From positions 1-19,876 of the forward strand of contig JBHLLO010000057.1 in the NCBI GenBank assembly GCA_048885535.1: 19,876 nucleotides of DNA, in the 5' to 3' direction. Source of the stretch: Candidatus Hermodarchaeota archaeon. Its GTDB lineage: Archaea; Asgardarchaeota; Lokiarchaeia; Sigyniarchaeales; SOKP01. The position numbers were made by a program, and so were the translations under genes. The notes under the pieces are model-generated. The model was not told the DNA's origin, did not search any database, and worked only from the letters and a program-made list of their open reading frames with translations. Positions 5,773 through 10,352 of the stretch are shown piece after piece. How positions within the stretch are numbered: position 1 is the first letter of the stretch; the number at the start of each line of letters is the position of its first letter.

Positions 5773-5989
5773 GATTGAAAATAAGAAGCAAAAATTATAA
5801 GAATTTAGATTATCCAATATAATCTCAAATAAATGATAAAAATGTCGAAGAAAAACAATCTCTTTTATTTTACTTATCAAAAATTCCAGAAAATTTTTAT
5901 AAAATTTAATGATTACATAAACACAATTAGTTTAAATTAGCTAATTTAAAAAAAAATAAATTTATCAAACAATAAATAGGTAGAAAAAC
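5773..5989. promoter_or_regulatory. Divergent promoter region between hypEDF and the hydrogenase operon
   Basis: Very AT-rich intergenic region between head-to-head genes. Palindromic TTTTATAAAA at 5895-5904 could act as a TATA box in either direction; exact elements are not assignable by eye. Confidence 0.45.
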
Positions 5990-7340
5990 ATGGCAGTGAA
6001 AGTTGCTTTTATGCAATGCTCCGATATGGTAAAAATGTTCAATTTTTCCACGGAAGTGCTGGGGCTGCCACCAGAGCCTACTTAACGCACATTTAGGCTT
6101 ATTACCGGTACTCCCAGCATTGGATATTGTATATTGGCCAGCTGTAGTTGATTTCAAATATGACTCTTTGAAAGCAAGACCAGATGGAGATATTCTTGTA
6201 GGATTTGTTGAAGGAAGTTTAAGAACAAAAGAAGATGTAGAAAGCGCAAAATTAATGCGTGCCAAATGCAAGTTAATTATTGCCTTTGGTAGCTGTTCTT
6301 GTTATGGGAACGTTCATGGTTTAGCAAATGTATGGGACGTTCAAGAAGCTATAGATCGAAAGTTTAAACAAGCGGAATCAATAACTAATAGAGATACAGC
6401 AGGAGAACCTAAAAAACATACTCCTGGATTCGAAAGTAAAATTGTACCTTTAGACGAAGTTATAAAAGTGGATGCATATATAGGGGGCTGCCCACCAAAG
6501 CCGGAAGCTATCATCTCTGCGGTTCAATTTCTGCTTGGACAAAAGCCTCAACCAAAATCTGAAAGAACATTCTGCAATGATTGCATTTTACGAGAGAGTG
6601 GATGTTTATTAGAGAAAGGCACATTATGTTTTGGACCTATCACAAGTACTGGATGTTCATTAAAATGTACGAATGATGGTAAACCATGTGTTGGATGTTT
6701 TGGACCAAGTACTTCTGTAGACGGTAGAGCAAGTAGACTAAATGATATGCTTAGAAATATTGATAGCTTTAAATCAGGAGATAAAAAGAGTTTGTATGAA
6801 TTTTTAGCTCTTTTCTTGAATATACCATTGATGGCAGGCTTTGATTTAGCGGGAGATATATTAAAACAAGTTAAGAGGACTGGTTCACCTCAAACTCCTT
6901 TAGCTGAAATGCCTTCACAAACAACCGATATCGCTACAACTATTATGACATATCTTAGAGATCACCGAGAATTTTTAACTATCTCGAATGTCTGTGATAC
7001 TTGTGATCGTGTAATCGGAAGTGCGTCTAGAATGACAAGAGTCAAGAGAGATTATGAGGGCTTACCAAATATGACTGATTGTTTTATTGAACAAGGATAC
7101 CTCTGTGCGGGACCAATTACGAAAGCTGGCTGTGGTGGTTTATGTATACGGGTCAATGCTCCCTGCTCTGGCTGTTTTGGTCAGACAGAATGGAATGTTG
7201 ATCAAGCAGAGAGATTTGCTGAAGTAGCTACAAAAGGCTTCAATGTGGCTTTATCTAAGGAAGAACTTTTATTCCAAATTAAGGATAAGATTGGTTTTTC
7301 TGAGAAGTTCACATTAGCTGCTAATAAAAAATATAGGTAG
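5990..7340 (+). CDS. vhuG: F420-non-reducing [NiFe] hydrogenase small subunit (MvhG/VhuG), join(5990..6025,6057..7340), 439 aa after splicing
   Basis: The ORF track starts at 6120 and lacks the first CxxC. ATG 5990 gives MAVKVAFMQCSD, and the main frame from 6057 gives CWGCHQSLLNAHLGLLPVLPALDIVYWPAVVDFK. Also FVEGS, AFGSCSCYG, GGCPP and C-terminal Cys-rich domains. Confidence 0.93.
6026..6056 (+). other. 31-nt BHB (archaeal endonuclease-type) intron in vhuG mRNA
   Basis: Outer helix GC(6018-19)/GC(6058-59); central 4-bp helix UCCG(6020-23)/CGGA(6051-54); 3-nt bulges AUA(6024-26) and AGU(6055-57); inner helix UGG/CCA plus AAAAAU/AUUUUU. Cutting after the second bulge nucleotide on each strand joins GAT|TGC in frame. 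Confidence 0.9.
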
Positions 7341-7350
7341 GTGAAAAAAA

Positions 7351-8655
7351 ATGGTAAAAGAAATTGAAGTTGAGCCTGTCACTCGTTTAGAAGGACATGG
7401 CGGATTGAGGTTAGTAATAGGCGATGATGGCAAAGTTCAAGACGTGCAATTTAATATTACTTCTACAAGATTCTTTGAGAAATTTCTTGAAGGACGATAC
7501 TGCGAGCACATCCCTCGAATTACTCCAAGAATTTGCGGTATTTGCCCAATTCCCCATCATTTAACTCCTACTAAAGCTGTAGAAGATGCATGGGGTATAC
7601 AAATTCCAACACCTGCATATAAGTTACGTCAATTATTACAAAATGCAAAGCAGTATTCTTCTCATGCACTCCACTTCTATGCATTAGCAGCACCAGATTT
7701 CTTACTTGGACCTTTTGCAGATCCAGCATTAAGAAATGTTGTTCATGTAATCAGTAAGATGCCTGATGTCGGTGCGATGGCTCTAAAGATGATGGACTTC
7801 GGTCAGAAGCTATGCGCAGCTATTGGGGGTAAATCAGTACATCCTATTTCTGCCATAGTAGGTGGAATGAAGAAACCAATGGATGAAAGCGTACGTGATT
7901 TATTCTTAAAACAAATTGAAGATCAGGTAGAATGGACAAAAAAGACAGTCGATATAGGGTTAAAAGTAGTAGAAGATTATTGGGATGTCGTAGCCAACGT
8001 AGGAGTTGTGCCTACTTATTATGCTGGTATGACTAAAAATGGTGTTCATGATATTTATGATGGAGATCTCCGTATAGTCTCCCCTGAGGGACAGAAGTTT
8101 GACTATCCTCCTCAAAAATATCTAGAGGCTTTAGGTGAACATATTCCAGAACATTCTTATGCTACTCATATGTATTATAAGCCAGCAGGATACCCTGCAG
8201 GTATATATCGAGCTAATACATTAGCAATGATTAATTGTGCTGATAGAATGGCTACACCTTTAGCCGATGAAGCATTACAGGCAATGAGAGCAAAAGTTGG
8301 ACAAGTATCTCATCATACATTTGCATATCACTGGGCTCGATTAATTGAATTAGTAGAATCGATTGAAATAATTGCTACATTATTACAAGACGATGATATA
8401 GTTAATCCTAATTGTAAAACATTTGATGTCCAACCAAGAGAAGGAGATGGAGTTGGTCTTACTGAAGCTCCTAGAGGAATACTCTTGTATCATATATGGT
8501 CTGATGGTGAAGGCATATGCAAAAAGGCAAATCTCTTAGTAGCTACGAATCATAATATTGCGGGTATTGAGAAAACATTAATGCATGTAGCCAAACAAGT
8601 GTTCGAACAAAATGCTTTATCCGGATTAAAATTACCAGACCCTTGGATTAAATAA
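7351..8655 (+). CDS. vhuA: [NiFe] hydrogenase large subunit (MvhA/VhuA), split form lacking the C-terminal L2 motif
   Basis: EPVTRLEGHG, L1 motif RICGICPIPH, GGKSVHP, EAPRGILLYH, ANLLVATNHN. No DPCxxCxxH at the C-terminus; that part is encoded by the next gene. SD AGGTGA upstream. Confidence 0.95.
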   Translation: MVKEIEVEPVTRLEGHGGLRLVIGDDGKVQDVQFNITSTRFFEKFLEGRYCEHIPRITPRICGICPIPHHLTPTKAVEDAWGIQIPTPAYKLRQLLQNAKQYSSHALHFYALAAPDFLLGPFADPALRNVVHVISKMPDVGAMALKMMDFGQKLCAAIGGKSVHPISAIVGGMKKPMDESVRDLFLKQIEDQVEWTKKTVDIGLKVVEDYWDVVANVGVVPTYYAGMTKNGVHDIYDGDLRIVSPEGQKFDYPPQKYLEALGEHIPEHSYATHMYYKPAGYPAGIYRANTLAMINCADRMATPLADEALQAMRAKVGQVSHHTFAYHWARLIELVESIEIIATLLQDDDIVNPNCKTFDVQPREGDGVGLTEAPRGILLYHIWSDGEGICKKANLLVATNHNIAGIEKTLMHVAKQVFEQNALSGLKLPDPWIK

Positions 8656-8675: not shown

Positions 8676-8859
8676 ATGAGTGAAGATGTACCAGAAGGAG
8701 TAGTAAATCTTCTTGAAATGATAGTCAGATGCTTTGACTCTTTGGTTAATTCAACCAAGTGGAGTATACTGCTGACTATCCTGCGCCGCTCATATAACGG
8801 TCGTGAAAGAGAATGGCGAGGAGGTTTATTCTCGAAAGTTGAATGTTGGCCTTGGATGA
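8676..8859 (+). CDS. vhuU: Selenocysteine-containing hydrogenase peptide VhuU, join(8676..8736,8768..8859), 50 aa: MSEDVPEGVVNLLEMIVRCFDCULSCAAHITVVKENGEEVYSRKLNVGLG
   Basis: SD AGGAGG. Exon 1 gives NLLEMIVRCFD (cf. NxxEMxxRAYDP). The +1 frame gives TGC TGA CTA TCC TGC GCC GCT CAT (C-U-L-S-C-A-A-H), the L2 Ni-binding motif, then a cleavable tail and TGA 8857-59. Confidence 0.88.
8737..8767 (+). other. 31-nt relaxed BHB intron in vhuU mRNA
   Basis: Central helix GCUU(8731-34)/GAGU(8762-65) with two G-U pairs; bulges UGA(8735-37) and AUA(8766-68); inner hairpin UUGGUU/AACCAA; exon-exon helix AUAGUCAG(8721-28)/CUGACUAU(8772-79). Pairs flanking the bulges are imperfect. The boundary can slide up to 3 nt (ACT repeat) with an identical spliced product. 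Confidence 0.8.
8773..8775 (+). other. In-frame UGA read as selenocysteine in vhuU
   Basis: Falls at the first Cys position of the L2 motif (UxxCxxH), as in methanococcal VhuU, and has a SECIS about 80 nt downstream. Confidence 0.88.
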
Positions 8860-8917
8860 ATATCCAATATAAATAATAGATTGGATATGACTACCCACGC
8901 AAGGGTTAAAGCCAGCA
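8844..8917 (+). promoter_or_regulatory. Eukaryote-type SECIS element
   Basis: AUGA(8856-59)...GA(8889-90) core; 9-bp helix AUAUCCAAU(8860-68)/AUUGGAUAU(8880-88); A-rich apical loop (AAUAA 8872-76). Possible lower helices UGG/CCA, CCU/AGG and UGUUGGC(8844-50)/GCCAGCA(8911-17). Confidence 0.85.
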
Positions 8918-8971
8918 AATAAATGAAATGAATAAAAAAGTTTTAAAAGTTAACGGAAAACGTGAAAAAAA

Positions 8972-9490
8972 ATGTCGATTGATTTCGAATTTAGAAAACA
9001 AATTATGGATTTTCATATAGGGTCTGATCTAATTAAATATTGCTACCAATGTAGTCGATGCGCTGATAATTGTCCAGTCACAAACGTAACTACAGATTTT
9101 TATACGACTACAGGATATAATCCACGTAGTAACATCCTAAATGCTCTATTGGGATATAAGGATGCTATCTTTTCAGCAGATCCCTTAACAATTTGGGGAT
9201 GTACAGTTTGCGACACATGTGACGAGGTTTGTCCTCAAAAAATCGAGCTTACTGAAATATTTACTTTCTTGAAAAATAAATCAACAGAACAAGGTAATGC
9301 TCCCGATTTTATCTATTCTCAAGCAAAAACAATATTCGATAATGCTAAAGCAATTCCTCCACAACCTGCAATTGAAAGGCGAAGGGATCAATTAGGGTTA
9401 CCGACAATAATGACACCAGATATCAGTGAACTTCAAACATTATTAAGAAATATTGGAGCTAATAAAAAGATCATAGAAAAAGAGGGATAA
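8972..9490 (+). CDS. hdrC: Heterodisulfide reductase subunit C
   Basis: Two [4Fe-4S] motifs, CYQCSRCADNCP and CTVCDTCDEVCP; directly upstream of hdrB. Confidence 0.93.
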   Translation: MSIDFEFRKQIMDFHIGSDLIKYCYQCSRCADNCPVTNVTTDFYTTTGYNPRSNILNALLGYKDAIFSADPLTIWGCTVCDTCDEVCPQKIELTEIFTFLKNKSTEQGNAPDFIYSQAKTIFDNAKAIPPQPAIERRRDQLGLPTIMTPDISELQTLLRNIGANKKIIEKEG

Positions 9491-9494
9491 AGCA

Positions 9495-10352
9495 ATGACA
9501 GAATATAAAATGTTTGAAGGTTGTACAATAGGGAATCGTATTCCTTTTATAGAAGCTGCTTCAAGGAAAGTATTTGAGAAAGTAGGGATTGAAACATCAG
9601 AAGCTCCGTTTAGCTGTTGTCCTGATCCCACAGGAATGAAGAGTTTTGATAATGATGCATGGTTAGTAATTGGAGCTCGGAACCTTAGTCTAGCTGAAGC
9701 TGAAGGAAAAAATATCATATCGCTTTGTAATGGATGTGCTAATACTCTCAGAGGAGTGCAGCACCAATTAAAACACGATTCCTTAAAGAAAGAAAAAGTA
9801 AATCAACAACTAGCAAAAATCGGTAAACAATTCAACGGAAGTATAGAAGTAAAGCATTTTGTGGATGTCTTGCTGGAGAATCTTGATAGAATAAAAGGAG
9901 CAATTACTAAACCATTAAGCGGGTTAAAGGTTGCTGTTCACCCAGGTTGTCATTATATGAGACCAGCAGAATGGATGGAAAATGATGATCCACTAAGACC
10001 TCAAAATTTAAAGAAACTGGTTGCAGCTTCTGGAGCTACTGTTGTGGACTATGAAAGTTTAGCTTTATGTTGTGGATCAGCAGTTACTAATGCTTATGAA
10101 GAACATGGGTTAGCAAATCTAAAAATCAAATTAGATGATATCAAAAAAGCTGGAGTGGATGTAATTTGTGTAAACTGTCCCTCATGTTTTCAGCAATTTG
10201 ATACCCGTCAAAAAGATTTAGGCAAAAAATATGAGACGGAATATGACATTCCTGTTTTATATGTGACAGAATTATTAGCACTGGCTATGGGGATTAGTCC
10301 GGAAGATATAGGGCTAAAATTTCATAGAACGCGATTGAAGACCCAAATATAA
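9495..10352 (+). CDS. hdrB: Heterodisulfide reductase subunit B
   Basis: Two CCG domains: GC..CCPDP..CNGC and PGCH..CCGS..CPSC, with ARNL and IPVLYVTELLALAMG. Confidence 0.95.
   Translation: MTEYKMFEGCTIGNRIPFIEAASRKVFEKVGIETSEAPFSCCPDPTGMKSFDNDAWLVIGARNLSLAEAEGKNIISLCNGCANTLRGVQHQLKHDSLKKEKVNQQLAKIGKQFNGSIEVKHFVDVLLENLDRIKGAITKPLSGLKVAVHPGCHYMRPAEWMENDDPLRPQNLKKLVAASGATVVDYESLALCCGSAVTNAYEEHGLANLKIKLDDIKKAGVDVICVNCPSCFQQFDTRQKDLGKKYETEYDIPVLYVTELLALAMGISPEDIGLKFHRTRLKTQI

Follow-up and report, generated by a model that had tools for sequence, protein, structure and literature searches.

A 31-nt insert with the shape and position of a bulge-helix-bulge intron interrupts the start of a hydrogenase gene in an Asgard archaeon

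Results

Genes and features at the locus

The window analysed comprises 19,876 nucleotides of contig JBHLLO010000057.1 (assembly GCA_048885535.1), and contains a hydrogenase gene cluster in which the gene for the small subunit of a [NiFeSe]-hydrogenase (vhuG/mvhG type) is followed by genes for a large subunit, a selenocysteine-containing vhuU-like peptide and hdrC- and hdrB-like proteins (Table 1). The name vhuG, as used in the original prediction, fits this gene on account of both its Oxidored_q6 domain and this context. The frame that opens at the start codon of the small-subunit gene, 5990-6085, encodes only 31 amino acids before terminating at TAA 6083-85, whereas the frame from 6057 reads CWGCHQSLLNAH and continues through to the end of the gene. 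The latter matches Oxidored_q6 (PF01058, E 2.4e-23) from profile position 1, at CWGC. The best match among solved structures is MvhG (5odc_E), which has 11 residues before its CxGC motif, as opposed to 12 in exon 1 here, a spacing that is attained only upon removal of 31 nt. The small subunit additionally has about 130 residues with no counterpart in MvhG. A second insert, also of 31 nt, lies in the vhuU-like gene. No Rfam family was detected at gathering score in the window.

Table 1. Features of the hydrogenase locus and the principal evidence for each.
Feature	Position	Strand	Description
vhuG/mvhG-type small-subunit gene, exon 1	5990..6025	+	ATG plus 11 codons, MAVKVAFMQCSD; the same 12 codons directly precede TGY TGG GGN TGY in 16 of 20 orthologues
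Possible exon-exon helix	5991..6070	+	UGGCAGU 5991-97 / GCUGCCA 6064-70, enclosing the start codon and the BHB
Bulge-helix-bulge (BHB) motif	6018..6059	+	h GC 6018-19 / GC 6058-59; H UCCG 6020-23 / CGGA 6051-54; bulges AU|A 6024-26 and AG|U 6055-57; h' UGG 6027-29 / CCA 6048-50; inner stem 6031-36 / 6042-47
31-nt inferred intron	6026..6056	+	Insert absent from most orthologues; no other copy in the genome at E <= 0.01
Small-subunit gene, exon 2	6057..7340	+	Starts at the CWGC of the proximal-cluster motif; stop at 7338-7340; aligns from residue 12 of MvhG 5odc_E
Hydrogenase large subunit (VhuA-like)	7351..8655	+	434 aa; ORF ends at DPWIK; PF00374 matched over N-terminal residues 40-118; the D-C-U-L-S-C-A-A-H block lies in the separate vhuU-like gene downstream
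vhuU-like gene, exon 1	8676..8736	+	MSEDVPEGVVNLLEMIVRCF plus the first bases of the Asp codon, in register -2
Second 31-nt insert	8737..8767	+	Equivalent registers up to 8740-8770; relaxed BHB in register 8737-8767: H GCUU 8731-34 / GAGU 8762-65, bulges UG|A and AU|A, h' 1 bp, no adjacent h; exon-exon helix 8720-28 / 8772-80 nearby
vhuU-like gene, exon 2	8768..8859	+	Selenocysteine codon TGA 8773-75; stop TGA 8857-59
hdrC- and hdrB-like genes	8972-10352		

The insert coincides with a canonical BHB motif

The original prediction, that a canonical BHB motif lies immediately upstream of the proximal-cluster CxxC, was confirmed. A motif scan found a canonical hBHBh' in exactly this register (H 4/4, h 2 bp, h' 3 bp), and comparison with homologues leaves only one possible position for the insert, which is the same. 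The motif by itself is weak evidence, however. The same definition is satisfied at about 6e-4 per (position, length) pair in this genome (213,800 hits on the + strand and 213,032 on the - strand, for lengths of 14-120), and five such motifs occur by chance in 5980-6100 alone, being common in this AT-rich DNA. Nor was the folding energy of the region significantly better than that of shuffled sequences (z -0.33 for 6005-6072 and z -1.50 for 5985-6075). Additionally, the outer helix h is short, and the MFE fold prefers a slightly different pairing on the 3' side. It is the exact coincidence with the insert boundaries defined by homology, together with the covariation described below, that carries weight. 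The longer exon-exon helix noted in the original prediction is present, and appears in the MFE fold, but since both of its arms lie in codons that vary little across relatives it receives no independent support and cannot be credited with a function.

Distribution and covariation among relatives

The presence of the insert among orthologues was examined next. Of 20 same-genus orthologues, 16 lack the insert and read MAVKVAFMQxSD|CWGCHQ straight through, colinear and gap-free across the predicted exon-exon junction, whereas 4 carry a 31-nt insert at the same place. In a wider set of named MAG contigs, inspection of the sequences indicated that 72 of 80 are colinear at this point, 2 are uninformative and 6 carry an insert at or just upstream of the site; the N-terminus of one sequence (L091; L-numbers denote sequences from relatives) was not found within 120 nt, and another (L090) starts at a contig end. 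Homologues with about 10 extra in-frame residues, which according to the original prediction would have refuted the intron, were not seen. The insert of the present genome was compared with those of L021, L022, L093 and L094, all of 31 nt. Across these five sequences 74 of 75 pair cells (98.7%) are paired, and 7 of 15 pairs are changed on both sides, including pairs in H (C-G to U-A) and h (G-C to A-U). None of 500 shuffles (0 of 500) reached this, while slid registers gave only 33-53% pairing. In all of these sequences the rest of the gene is full-length and without stops.

Other lineages carry unrelated BHB inserts at or near the same site, and these sit on separate branches of the tree. Motif scanning identified a 37-nt insert in L087 and a 29-nt insert in the His codon of L094. 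A 32-nt insert in L061, with helix ACUC/GAGU, was read by hand from the sequence, whereas the 30-nt inserts in the His codon of L040 and L042 were judged by hand to be near-canonical, with one A.A mismatch, the scan having found no motif in register.

In the case of vhuU, 79 of 80 loci are colinear (RCFD-C-U-LSCAAH) and only the present genome has the insert. The region folds with z -3.42, although the motif itself is merely relaxed. Pfam searches returned nothing for the two short vhuU pieces. Apart from one 17-nt match to the context of this second insert, no copy of either insert was found elsewhere in the genome at E <= 0.01.

The inserts are real DNA. Logan contigs of 4 sequencing runs contain 81-97% of the sampled words, with no indel or joint at either insert, and cover the vhuU insert without gaps. 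For the first insert this conclusion rests on word share, depth and the absence of indels or joints. A variant intron appears as a loose end at 6035.

Inserts in other genes of the same genome

Inserts at colinear junctions were identified in six other genes of this genome, namely vhuU, vhuD, purA, dnaG, a CoA-transferase gene and a low-molecular-weight (LMW) phosphatase gene. In dnaG, exon 1 corresponds to NF003108 positions 1-26 and exon 2 to positions 27-280; in the CoA-transferase gene the exons correspond to NF008511 positions 10-42 and 43-340, and in vhuD to PF02662 positions 1-19 and 21-123. The purA insert forms an exact 10-residue gap against 4m0g_A, inside GD|EGKGK, and holds two stops, while the phosphatase gene has two in-frame TAA codons in the stretch between CSGN and TARS. 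All seven inserts, including that in the small-subunit gene, have a register with an intact 4-bp central helix (H 4/4), although those of vhuU, purA and dnaG lack an adjacent outer helix and that of the phosphatase gene has only 1 bp of h'. The purA insert is present in 6 of 29 informative relatives and the dnaG insert in 11 of 29, each with H 4/4 kept; L162 has GGGC/GCCU.

Further cases were also sought genome-wide from the motif. Canonical BHB motifs combined with ORF fusion (40/40 codons) yielded 6,359 hits against 5,944 expected, with no peak at any length, whereas stricter filters yielded 108 hits against 75 expected, most of which are adjacent genes. A relaxed motif could not distinguish real pairing from a fake pairing rule (273 against 277 of 322 candidates). 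The motif therefore cannot be used for a census, and the genome-wide support rests on homology, the additional cases having been recognised by eye from start-less ORFs and then checked by profile or structure alignment. Of 10 start-less ORFs inspected, 3 were read as interrupted genes (purA, the phosphatase gene, and vhuD, in which an in-frame TGA was read as Sec and the 31-nt insert lies upstream), 2 fit non-canonical starts and 5 stayed unclear. Of 20 more, none gave a new convincing insert: one is a Sec codon in an hdrA-like gene, one looks like a frameshift in a lysine-rich A-run and one fits an ATC start. A candidate upstream of a second small-subunit-like gene (C11:33179-33221) stayed unresolved, and these data do not show that internal introns are absent.

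The genome encodes two EndA paralogues (PF01974) and one RtcB (PF01139). Additionally, 18 of the 27 tRNA genes inspected in the ARAGORN output carry introns.

Discussion

The explanation favoured here, with high confidence, is that bases 6026-6056 are an archaeal BHB intron inside the coding sequence of the [NiFeSe]-hydrogenase small-subunit gene of a Promethearchaeota (Lokiarchaeia-like) archaeon, although none of the 17 sequencing runs identified is on record as RNA, and splicing itself is accordingly inferred. In this scheme the pre-mRNA folds such that UCCG of the 5' exon pairs with CGGA of the intron, forming a 4-bp central helix flanked by two 3-nt bulges on opposite strands, a short exon-exon helix and an intron hairpin. 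The tRNA-splicing endonuclease EndA, here probably a two-subunit form, would then cut after what is presumed to be the second base of each bulge (6025|6026 and 6056|6057), and RtcB would join the exons. Asgard EndA has been described as (alpha-beta)2, with the L1 loop linked to broad specificity (PMC5829648). Only the spliced mRNA would encode MAVKVAFMQCSD-CWGCHQSLL, with the CxGC iron-sulfur ligands at the normal spacing and the expected peptide VAFMQCSDCWGCHQSLL. The original interpretation is supported. The intron is most simply viewed as a tolerated selfish or neutral insertion, although a regulatory role, in which splicing gates hydrogenase synthesis, is possible.

It could be argued that the insert is not removed, the gene being a pseudogene or recently disrupted in this and a few related genomes, and the BHB-like fold a coincidence. 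The absence of RNA evidence, the frequency with which such short motifs occur by chance, and the interruption of vhuU in the same operon, in this genome only, are compatible with this view; indeed, if the vhuU insert were not removed the enzyme would be dead in this genome whatever happens at 6026-6056. However, it seems unlikely, given that the small-subunit insert persists in five species-level genomes with compensatory changes that keep every helix, that the remaining 427 codons stay open and 82-86% identical at the protein level, and that the exact register has a chance of only about 6e-4. Moreover, the same kind of insert is kept across 6 and 11 genomes in purA and dnaG, respectively, each of which was found once in the genome by the query used and both of which are probably indispensable. 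An artefact of assembly or binning is the least likely of the alternatives. Although 31 is a common k-mer size and the genome is a 112-contig MAG, diverged versions of the insert stand in MAG records with different isolate names and assembler-style contig names (L021, L022, L093 and L094), and the Logan contigs showed no gap or joint at either insert.

Accommodation by the ribosome, either through programmed frameshifting or through bypassing of the type associated with phage T4 gene 60, is likewise improbable. A hairpin lies in the insert, and the required frame change is a simple -1/+2, but frameshifting would leave about 10 extra residues directly before the CxGC ligands, which no orthologue examined has. 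With regard to a hop, the take-off codon GAU is followed by AUG, as opposed to the stop that bypassing would appear to call for, and the bases before UGC are GAAG, such that there is no GAU or GAC landing codon. Several of the sister inserts (purA, phosphatase, dnaG) hold in-frame stops, and all seven keep a BHB central helix in register, which a ribosomal mechanism does not need. Removal from the RNA by something other than EndA and RtcB, such as an unknown nuclease and ligase or self-cleavage, is also considered doubtful. Nothing links the enzyme to the site experimentally, and several of the inserts have incomplete flanking helices. Nevertheless, the cut sites fall at the BHB positions in seven of seven inserts, HBh'-type motifs are described substrates of broad-specificity EndA (PMC5829648), and 31 nt is probably far too short for a self-splicing group I or II intron core.

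A broader reading, which is considered likely though less secure than that for the small-subunit gene alone, is that short BHB introns in protein-coding genes are a regular feature of this lineage as opposed to a one-gene oddity. At least seven genes of one genome would then carry 21-37-nt introns within their first 12-39 codons, including purA, dnaG and three subunits of one selenium-dependent hydrogenase, with introns gained repeatedly at the same few codons and kept through speciation. mRNA splicing by the tRNA-splicing machinery would thus be part of normal gene expression in the closest archaeal relatives of eukaryotes, with a bias towards the 5' end that is perhaps reminiscent of intron-poor eukaryotes. 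These cases move the mechanism into the archaeal group closest to eukaryotes, and into central metabolism and replication genes. In practical terms, gene callers will report such genes as frameshifted, truncated or as pseudogenes, and metabolic reconstructions of Asgard MAGs (hydrogenases, purine synthesis) may therefore be wrong at these loci.

As of 2020, BHB introns were known in only two archaeal mRNAs (PMC7714728), and full-text searches, which did not extend to supplementary files, found no report of such introns in Asgard archaea. The first of the two, in the cbf5 pre-mRNA of Crenarchaeota (Watanabe et al. 2002; Yokobori et al. 2009, PMC2738675), is likewise a short BHB-type intron inside a coding sequence, patchily distributed among relatives, often with a relaxed motif, and found in lineages with a hetero-oligomeric splicing endonuclease. 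Splicing of cbf5 was shown by experiment, whereas here it is inferred, and the present case concerns a different phylum and different genes, with several genes interrupted in one genome and the same few codons of one gene hit repeatedly. The second, in Haloferax volcanii HVO_1309 (Schwarz et al. 2020, PMC7714728), is an mRNA substrate of the tRNA-splicing endonuclease, confirmed in vitro, but lies in the 5' untranslated leader, whereas the insert described here interrupts the reading frame, such that splicing is needed to make the protein at all. The BHB introns of archaeal tRNA and rRNA, including those in the intron-rich tRNA genes of Asgard archaea (bioRxiv 10.64898/2026.10.13.758758), share the motif of two 3-nt bulges on opposite strands of a 4-bp helix, the presumed enzymes, the pattern of many apparently independent gains and the host group. 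Here, however, the host RNA is an mRNA, a word that does not occur in that preprint, which uses 'protein-coding' once, and for neighbouring genes only. Finally, the unconventional splicing of HAC1/XBP1 mRNA in eukaryotes is comparable in that a short, frame-changing intron appears to be removed without a spliceosome by an endonuclease acting on stem-loops, with sealing by an RtcB-type ligase (a role for RtcB in XBP-1 is mentioned in PMC8718801) and a consequent switch in the protein product. In that system the endonuclease appears to be IRE1 and the event a regulated stress response, whereas in the hydrogenase gene no regulation is shown and the motif is the tRNA-type BHB.

A 31-nt insert at the start of the small-subunit gene

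The stretch examined constitutes one whole contig (C57) of a 3.09-Mb, 112-contig archaeal genome of 30% G+C, referred to here as the own genome (G000). On its + strand a 31-codon ORF is followed by a longer frame that is open from position 6057, a NiFeSe-hydrogenase large-subunit gene, a short vhuU-like gene, and hdrC- and hdrB-like genes. Genes resembling hypD and hypE, named from their translations only, lie upstream on the - strand. The frame open from 6057 starts CWGCHQSLLNAH and matches Pfam Oxidored_q6 from profile position 1, and its best solved relative is MvhG of the Mvh-Hdr complex (5odc_E), aligned from residue 12 of that chain. About 130 residues of the small subunit have no counterpart in solved MvhG and hold a second Cys-rich motif (...GC..C....PC.GCFGP), which looks like an internal duplication or an inserted Fe-S domain. 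A single DNA contig of sequencing run X1, which joins 7100 to 7347 and thereby skips 246 nt with only 21 letters on the shorter side, may come from a relative or from the repeated Cys-rich motif.

Comparison with orthologous loci revealed that bases 6026-6056 are an insert. Of 20 loci from the same genus, 16 run from the ATG through AGC GAT directly into TGY TGG GGN TGY CAY with nothing in between, while four (the own locus, L002, L003 and L005) carry exactly 31 extra bases between GAT and TGY. A further 80 loci from named Promethearchaeota/Promethearchaeia MAG contigs, a set that overlaps the first in genomes, were then examined by inspection of the sequences. Of these, 72 run straight through the junction, two are uninformative (L090, which lies at a contig end, and L091, in which the N-terminus was not found), and five carry an insert at the junction, namely L021, L022, L093 and L094 with 31 nt, and L061 with 32 nt and a cut one base upstream. 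The remaining locus, L087, has an insert just upstream. Removal of 6026-6056 therefore reproduces the sequence that most relatives encode directly, and places 12 residues before the CxGC motif, compared to 11 in solved MvhG.

Locations of features in contig C57 and of further features in the own genome (G000)
Feature	Location	Strand	Length	Bulge-helix-bulge (BHB) motif in register
Short ORF	C57:5990-6085	+	31 codons	
Exon-exon helix over the start codon	C57:5991-97 / 6064-70			
BHB motif of the small-subunit gene	C57:6018-6059			GC-UCCG-[AUA]-UGG...CCA-CGGA-[AGU]-GC
Insert in the small-subunit gene (vhuG)	C57:6026-6056		31 nt	canonical
Long open frame (small subunit)	C57:6057-7340	+		
Region without counterpart in MvhG (residues 182-309)	C57:6600-6980		about 130 residues	
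Hydrogenase large subunit	C57:7351-8655	+		
Insert in the vhuU-like gene	C57:8737-8767 (equivalently up to 8740-8770)		31 nt	GCUU/GAGU, h' 1 bp, no adjacent h
In-frame TGA of the vhuU-like gene	C57:8773-8775			
Possible SECIS element	C57:about 8880-8925			
Insert in vhuD/mvhD	C28:26163..26133	-	31 nt	GUAC/GUAC, h 4, h' 8
hdrA-like gene with in-frame TGA	C28:near 28163			
Insert in CoA-transferase gene	C35:17838-17868	+	31 nt	canonical
Insert in dnaG	C61:3556-3592	+	37 nt	H 4/4, h' 3, no adjacent h
Insert in purA	C4:31027..30998	-	30 nt	H 4/4, h' 4, no adjacent h
Insert in LMW phosphatase gene	C9:40585-40605	+	21 nt	H 4/4, h 3, h' 1
Genes with conserved N-termini beginning at CTG, ATC or ATT	C4:6641, C15:6886, C8:71696			
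Second small-subunit-like gene, start region	C11:33179-33221			

Correspondence of the insert with a bulge-helix-bulge motif

The sequence of the motif is as described in the original prediction. On the premise that the endonuclease cuts after the second base of each 3-nt bulge, the cuts fall between 6025 and 6026 and between 6056 and 6057, exactly at the ends defined by homology. A motif scan (central helix H of 4 bp with G-U allowed, exon-exon helix h of at least 2 bp and intron helix h' of at least 2 bp) finds this register, to which homology leaves no alternative, and the same definition is met genome-wide at about 6e-4 per position-and-length pair. The motif alone, however, is weak evidence, since five such motifs occur in 5980-6100 and the folding energy of the region is ordinary (z -0.33 and -1.50). 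The exon-exon helix over the start codon exists, but lies in codons that vary little among relatives and so carries no independent support.

The weight of the evidence comes instead from comparison. The 31-nt inserts of the own locus, L021, L022, L093 and L094 align without gaps, and when mapped onto the structure of h, H, h' and the inner stem, 74 of 75 cells pair, with 7 of 15 pairs showing changes on both sides, including one pair of H (C-G to U-A) and one of h (G-C to A-U). None of 500 shuffles (0 of 500) reached the observed values, and structures slid by 1-3 columns pair at only 33-53%. The intron of L094 shares little sequence with the others, yet keeps the whole fold.

Other lineages carry different inserts in the same few codons, at three nearby positions (between D and C, between F and I, and inside the His codon of LLNAH), indicating an insertion hot spot. 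The 32-nt insert of L061, cut one base upstream of the own site, has a central helix ACUC/GAGU with bulges AGA and AAA, each divided after its second base, as read from the sequence. The 37-nt insert of L087, whose removal joins KVAF to ISDCWGC, has a canonical motif according to the scan, with a central helix GCCU/GGGC assigned by hand. L094 (the same locus as L005) has a second insert, of 29 nt, inside the His codon, where the scan again finds a canonical motif. Conversely, the 30-nt inserts of L040 (the same locus as L017) and L042, which contain a TAA and interrupt the same His codon, have one A.A mismatch in a central helix assigned by hand, and the scan found no motif in register. On a quick maximum-likelihood tree of 81 small-subunit sequences (SH-aLRT support in brackets), the own-type intron is in 4 rows of a 5-row clade (98), with L023 lacking it, L094 is in the sister group inside an 8-row clade (95), and L040 and L042 are sisters (98), whereas the nearest neighbour of L061 (L058) and the sister of L087 (L086) lack any insert. 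By inspection, as opposed to a formal count of changes, this makes at least five separate forms.

The insert in the vhuU-like gene

The vhuU-like gene encodes ...EMIVRCFD and then, in another frame, C-U(TGA)-LSCAAH ITVV.... In 79 of the 80 loci where both halves were found the halves are 6 nt apart (D-C-U), and only the own genome has 37 nt, that is, a 31-nt insert. Four registers are equivalent, one of which has an intact central helix with bulges UGA and AUA, each divided after its second base, although the flanking helices are weak. The region folds well (z -3.42), with a 9-bp exon-exon helix. DNA contigs of four sequencing runs cover 8678-8900, or most of that stretch, without gaps, and loose ends at 8737 show an insert-less relative in the same samples. 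These data are interpreted as indicating a recent intron with a relaxed motif, albeit with less confidence than for the first insert. The in-frame TGA of this gene, together with two in vhuD and one in an hdrA-like gene, occur at positions where Cys would be expected in relatives, and are read as selenocysteine codons. A block downstream of the vhuU stop, also seen in L090, could feasibly be a SECIS element, although Rfam found nothing at gathering score.

Inserts in other genes of the same genome

Five more short inserts were identified at colinear junctions of protein-coding genes in the own genome. In vhuD/mvhD, the first exon corresponds to PF02662 positions 1-19 and the second to positions 21-123, with a split codon between. 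The equivalent positions are 10-42 and 43-340 of NF008511 for the family III CoA-transferase, and 1-26 and 27-280 of NF003108 for dnaG. The purA insert, which is in frame and holds a TAA and a TGA, forms an exact 10-residue gap between GD and EGKGK against 4m0g_A. The insert in the low-molecular-weight (LMW) phosphatase gene holds two TAA codons and lies between CSGN and TARS, which is read as the catalytic loop, and the read-through protein matches PF01451. All seven inserts, counting the two in C57, have a register with H 4/4, although the CoA-transferase case was found through the motif and is not an independent test. Four of the seven, which are otherwise unrelated (vhuG, vhuU, vhuD and CoA-transferase), share the length of 31 nt, and three of the seven interrupted genes are subunits of one hydrogenase. 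The inserts lie at about codons 12, 14, 17, 21, 27, 37 and 39 of their genes; however, the manner in which they were found favours 5' sites.

The purA insert is present in 6 of 29 informative relatives and the dnaG insert in 11 of 29, one of them from another family. The central helix is kept in every case, with GGUC, GGCC or GGGC against GGCU or GCCU. Each gene was found once in the genome with the query used, and a stop-containing insert kept in such genes across species is hard to reconcile with anything but removal from the RNA. The conserved N-termini of three genes begin at CTG, ATC or ATT a few bases after a GGTGA/GGAGG box, with no ATG, GTG or TTG available, which suggests non-canonical start codons. 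A second small-subunit-like gene (...VASLTSCSGC...), which has no visible start codon and directly follows an 854-codon open frame, could reflect an intron, an odd start codon or adjacent genes.

Splicing machinery and comparison with known introns

The genome has two EndA-domain genes and one RtcB gene. Published work describes Asgard EndA as (alpha-beta)2 with the L1 loop tied to broad substrate range, and links hetero-oligomeric EndA to pre-mRNA introns with relaxed motifs (PMC5829648; PMC2738675). Since no RNA data were available for this stretch, the spliced mRNA, the excised intron and the action of the enzyme are all inferred.

No report of BHB introns in coding sequences of Asgard archaea was found in the full texts searched, which excluded most subscription journals and supplementary files, and a 2026 preprint on Asgard tRNA introns (bioRxiv 10.64898/2026.10.13.758758) does not contain the word mRNA. 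Previous work stated that, besides its own case in a 5'-UTR, only the crenarchaeal cbf5 mRNA intron had been reported (PMC7714728). The inserts examined here probably belong to this established type of intron, and are of high interest because of the host group, the number of genes and the recurrent gains.
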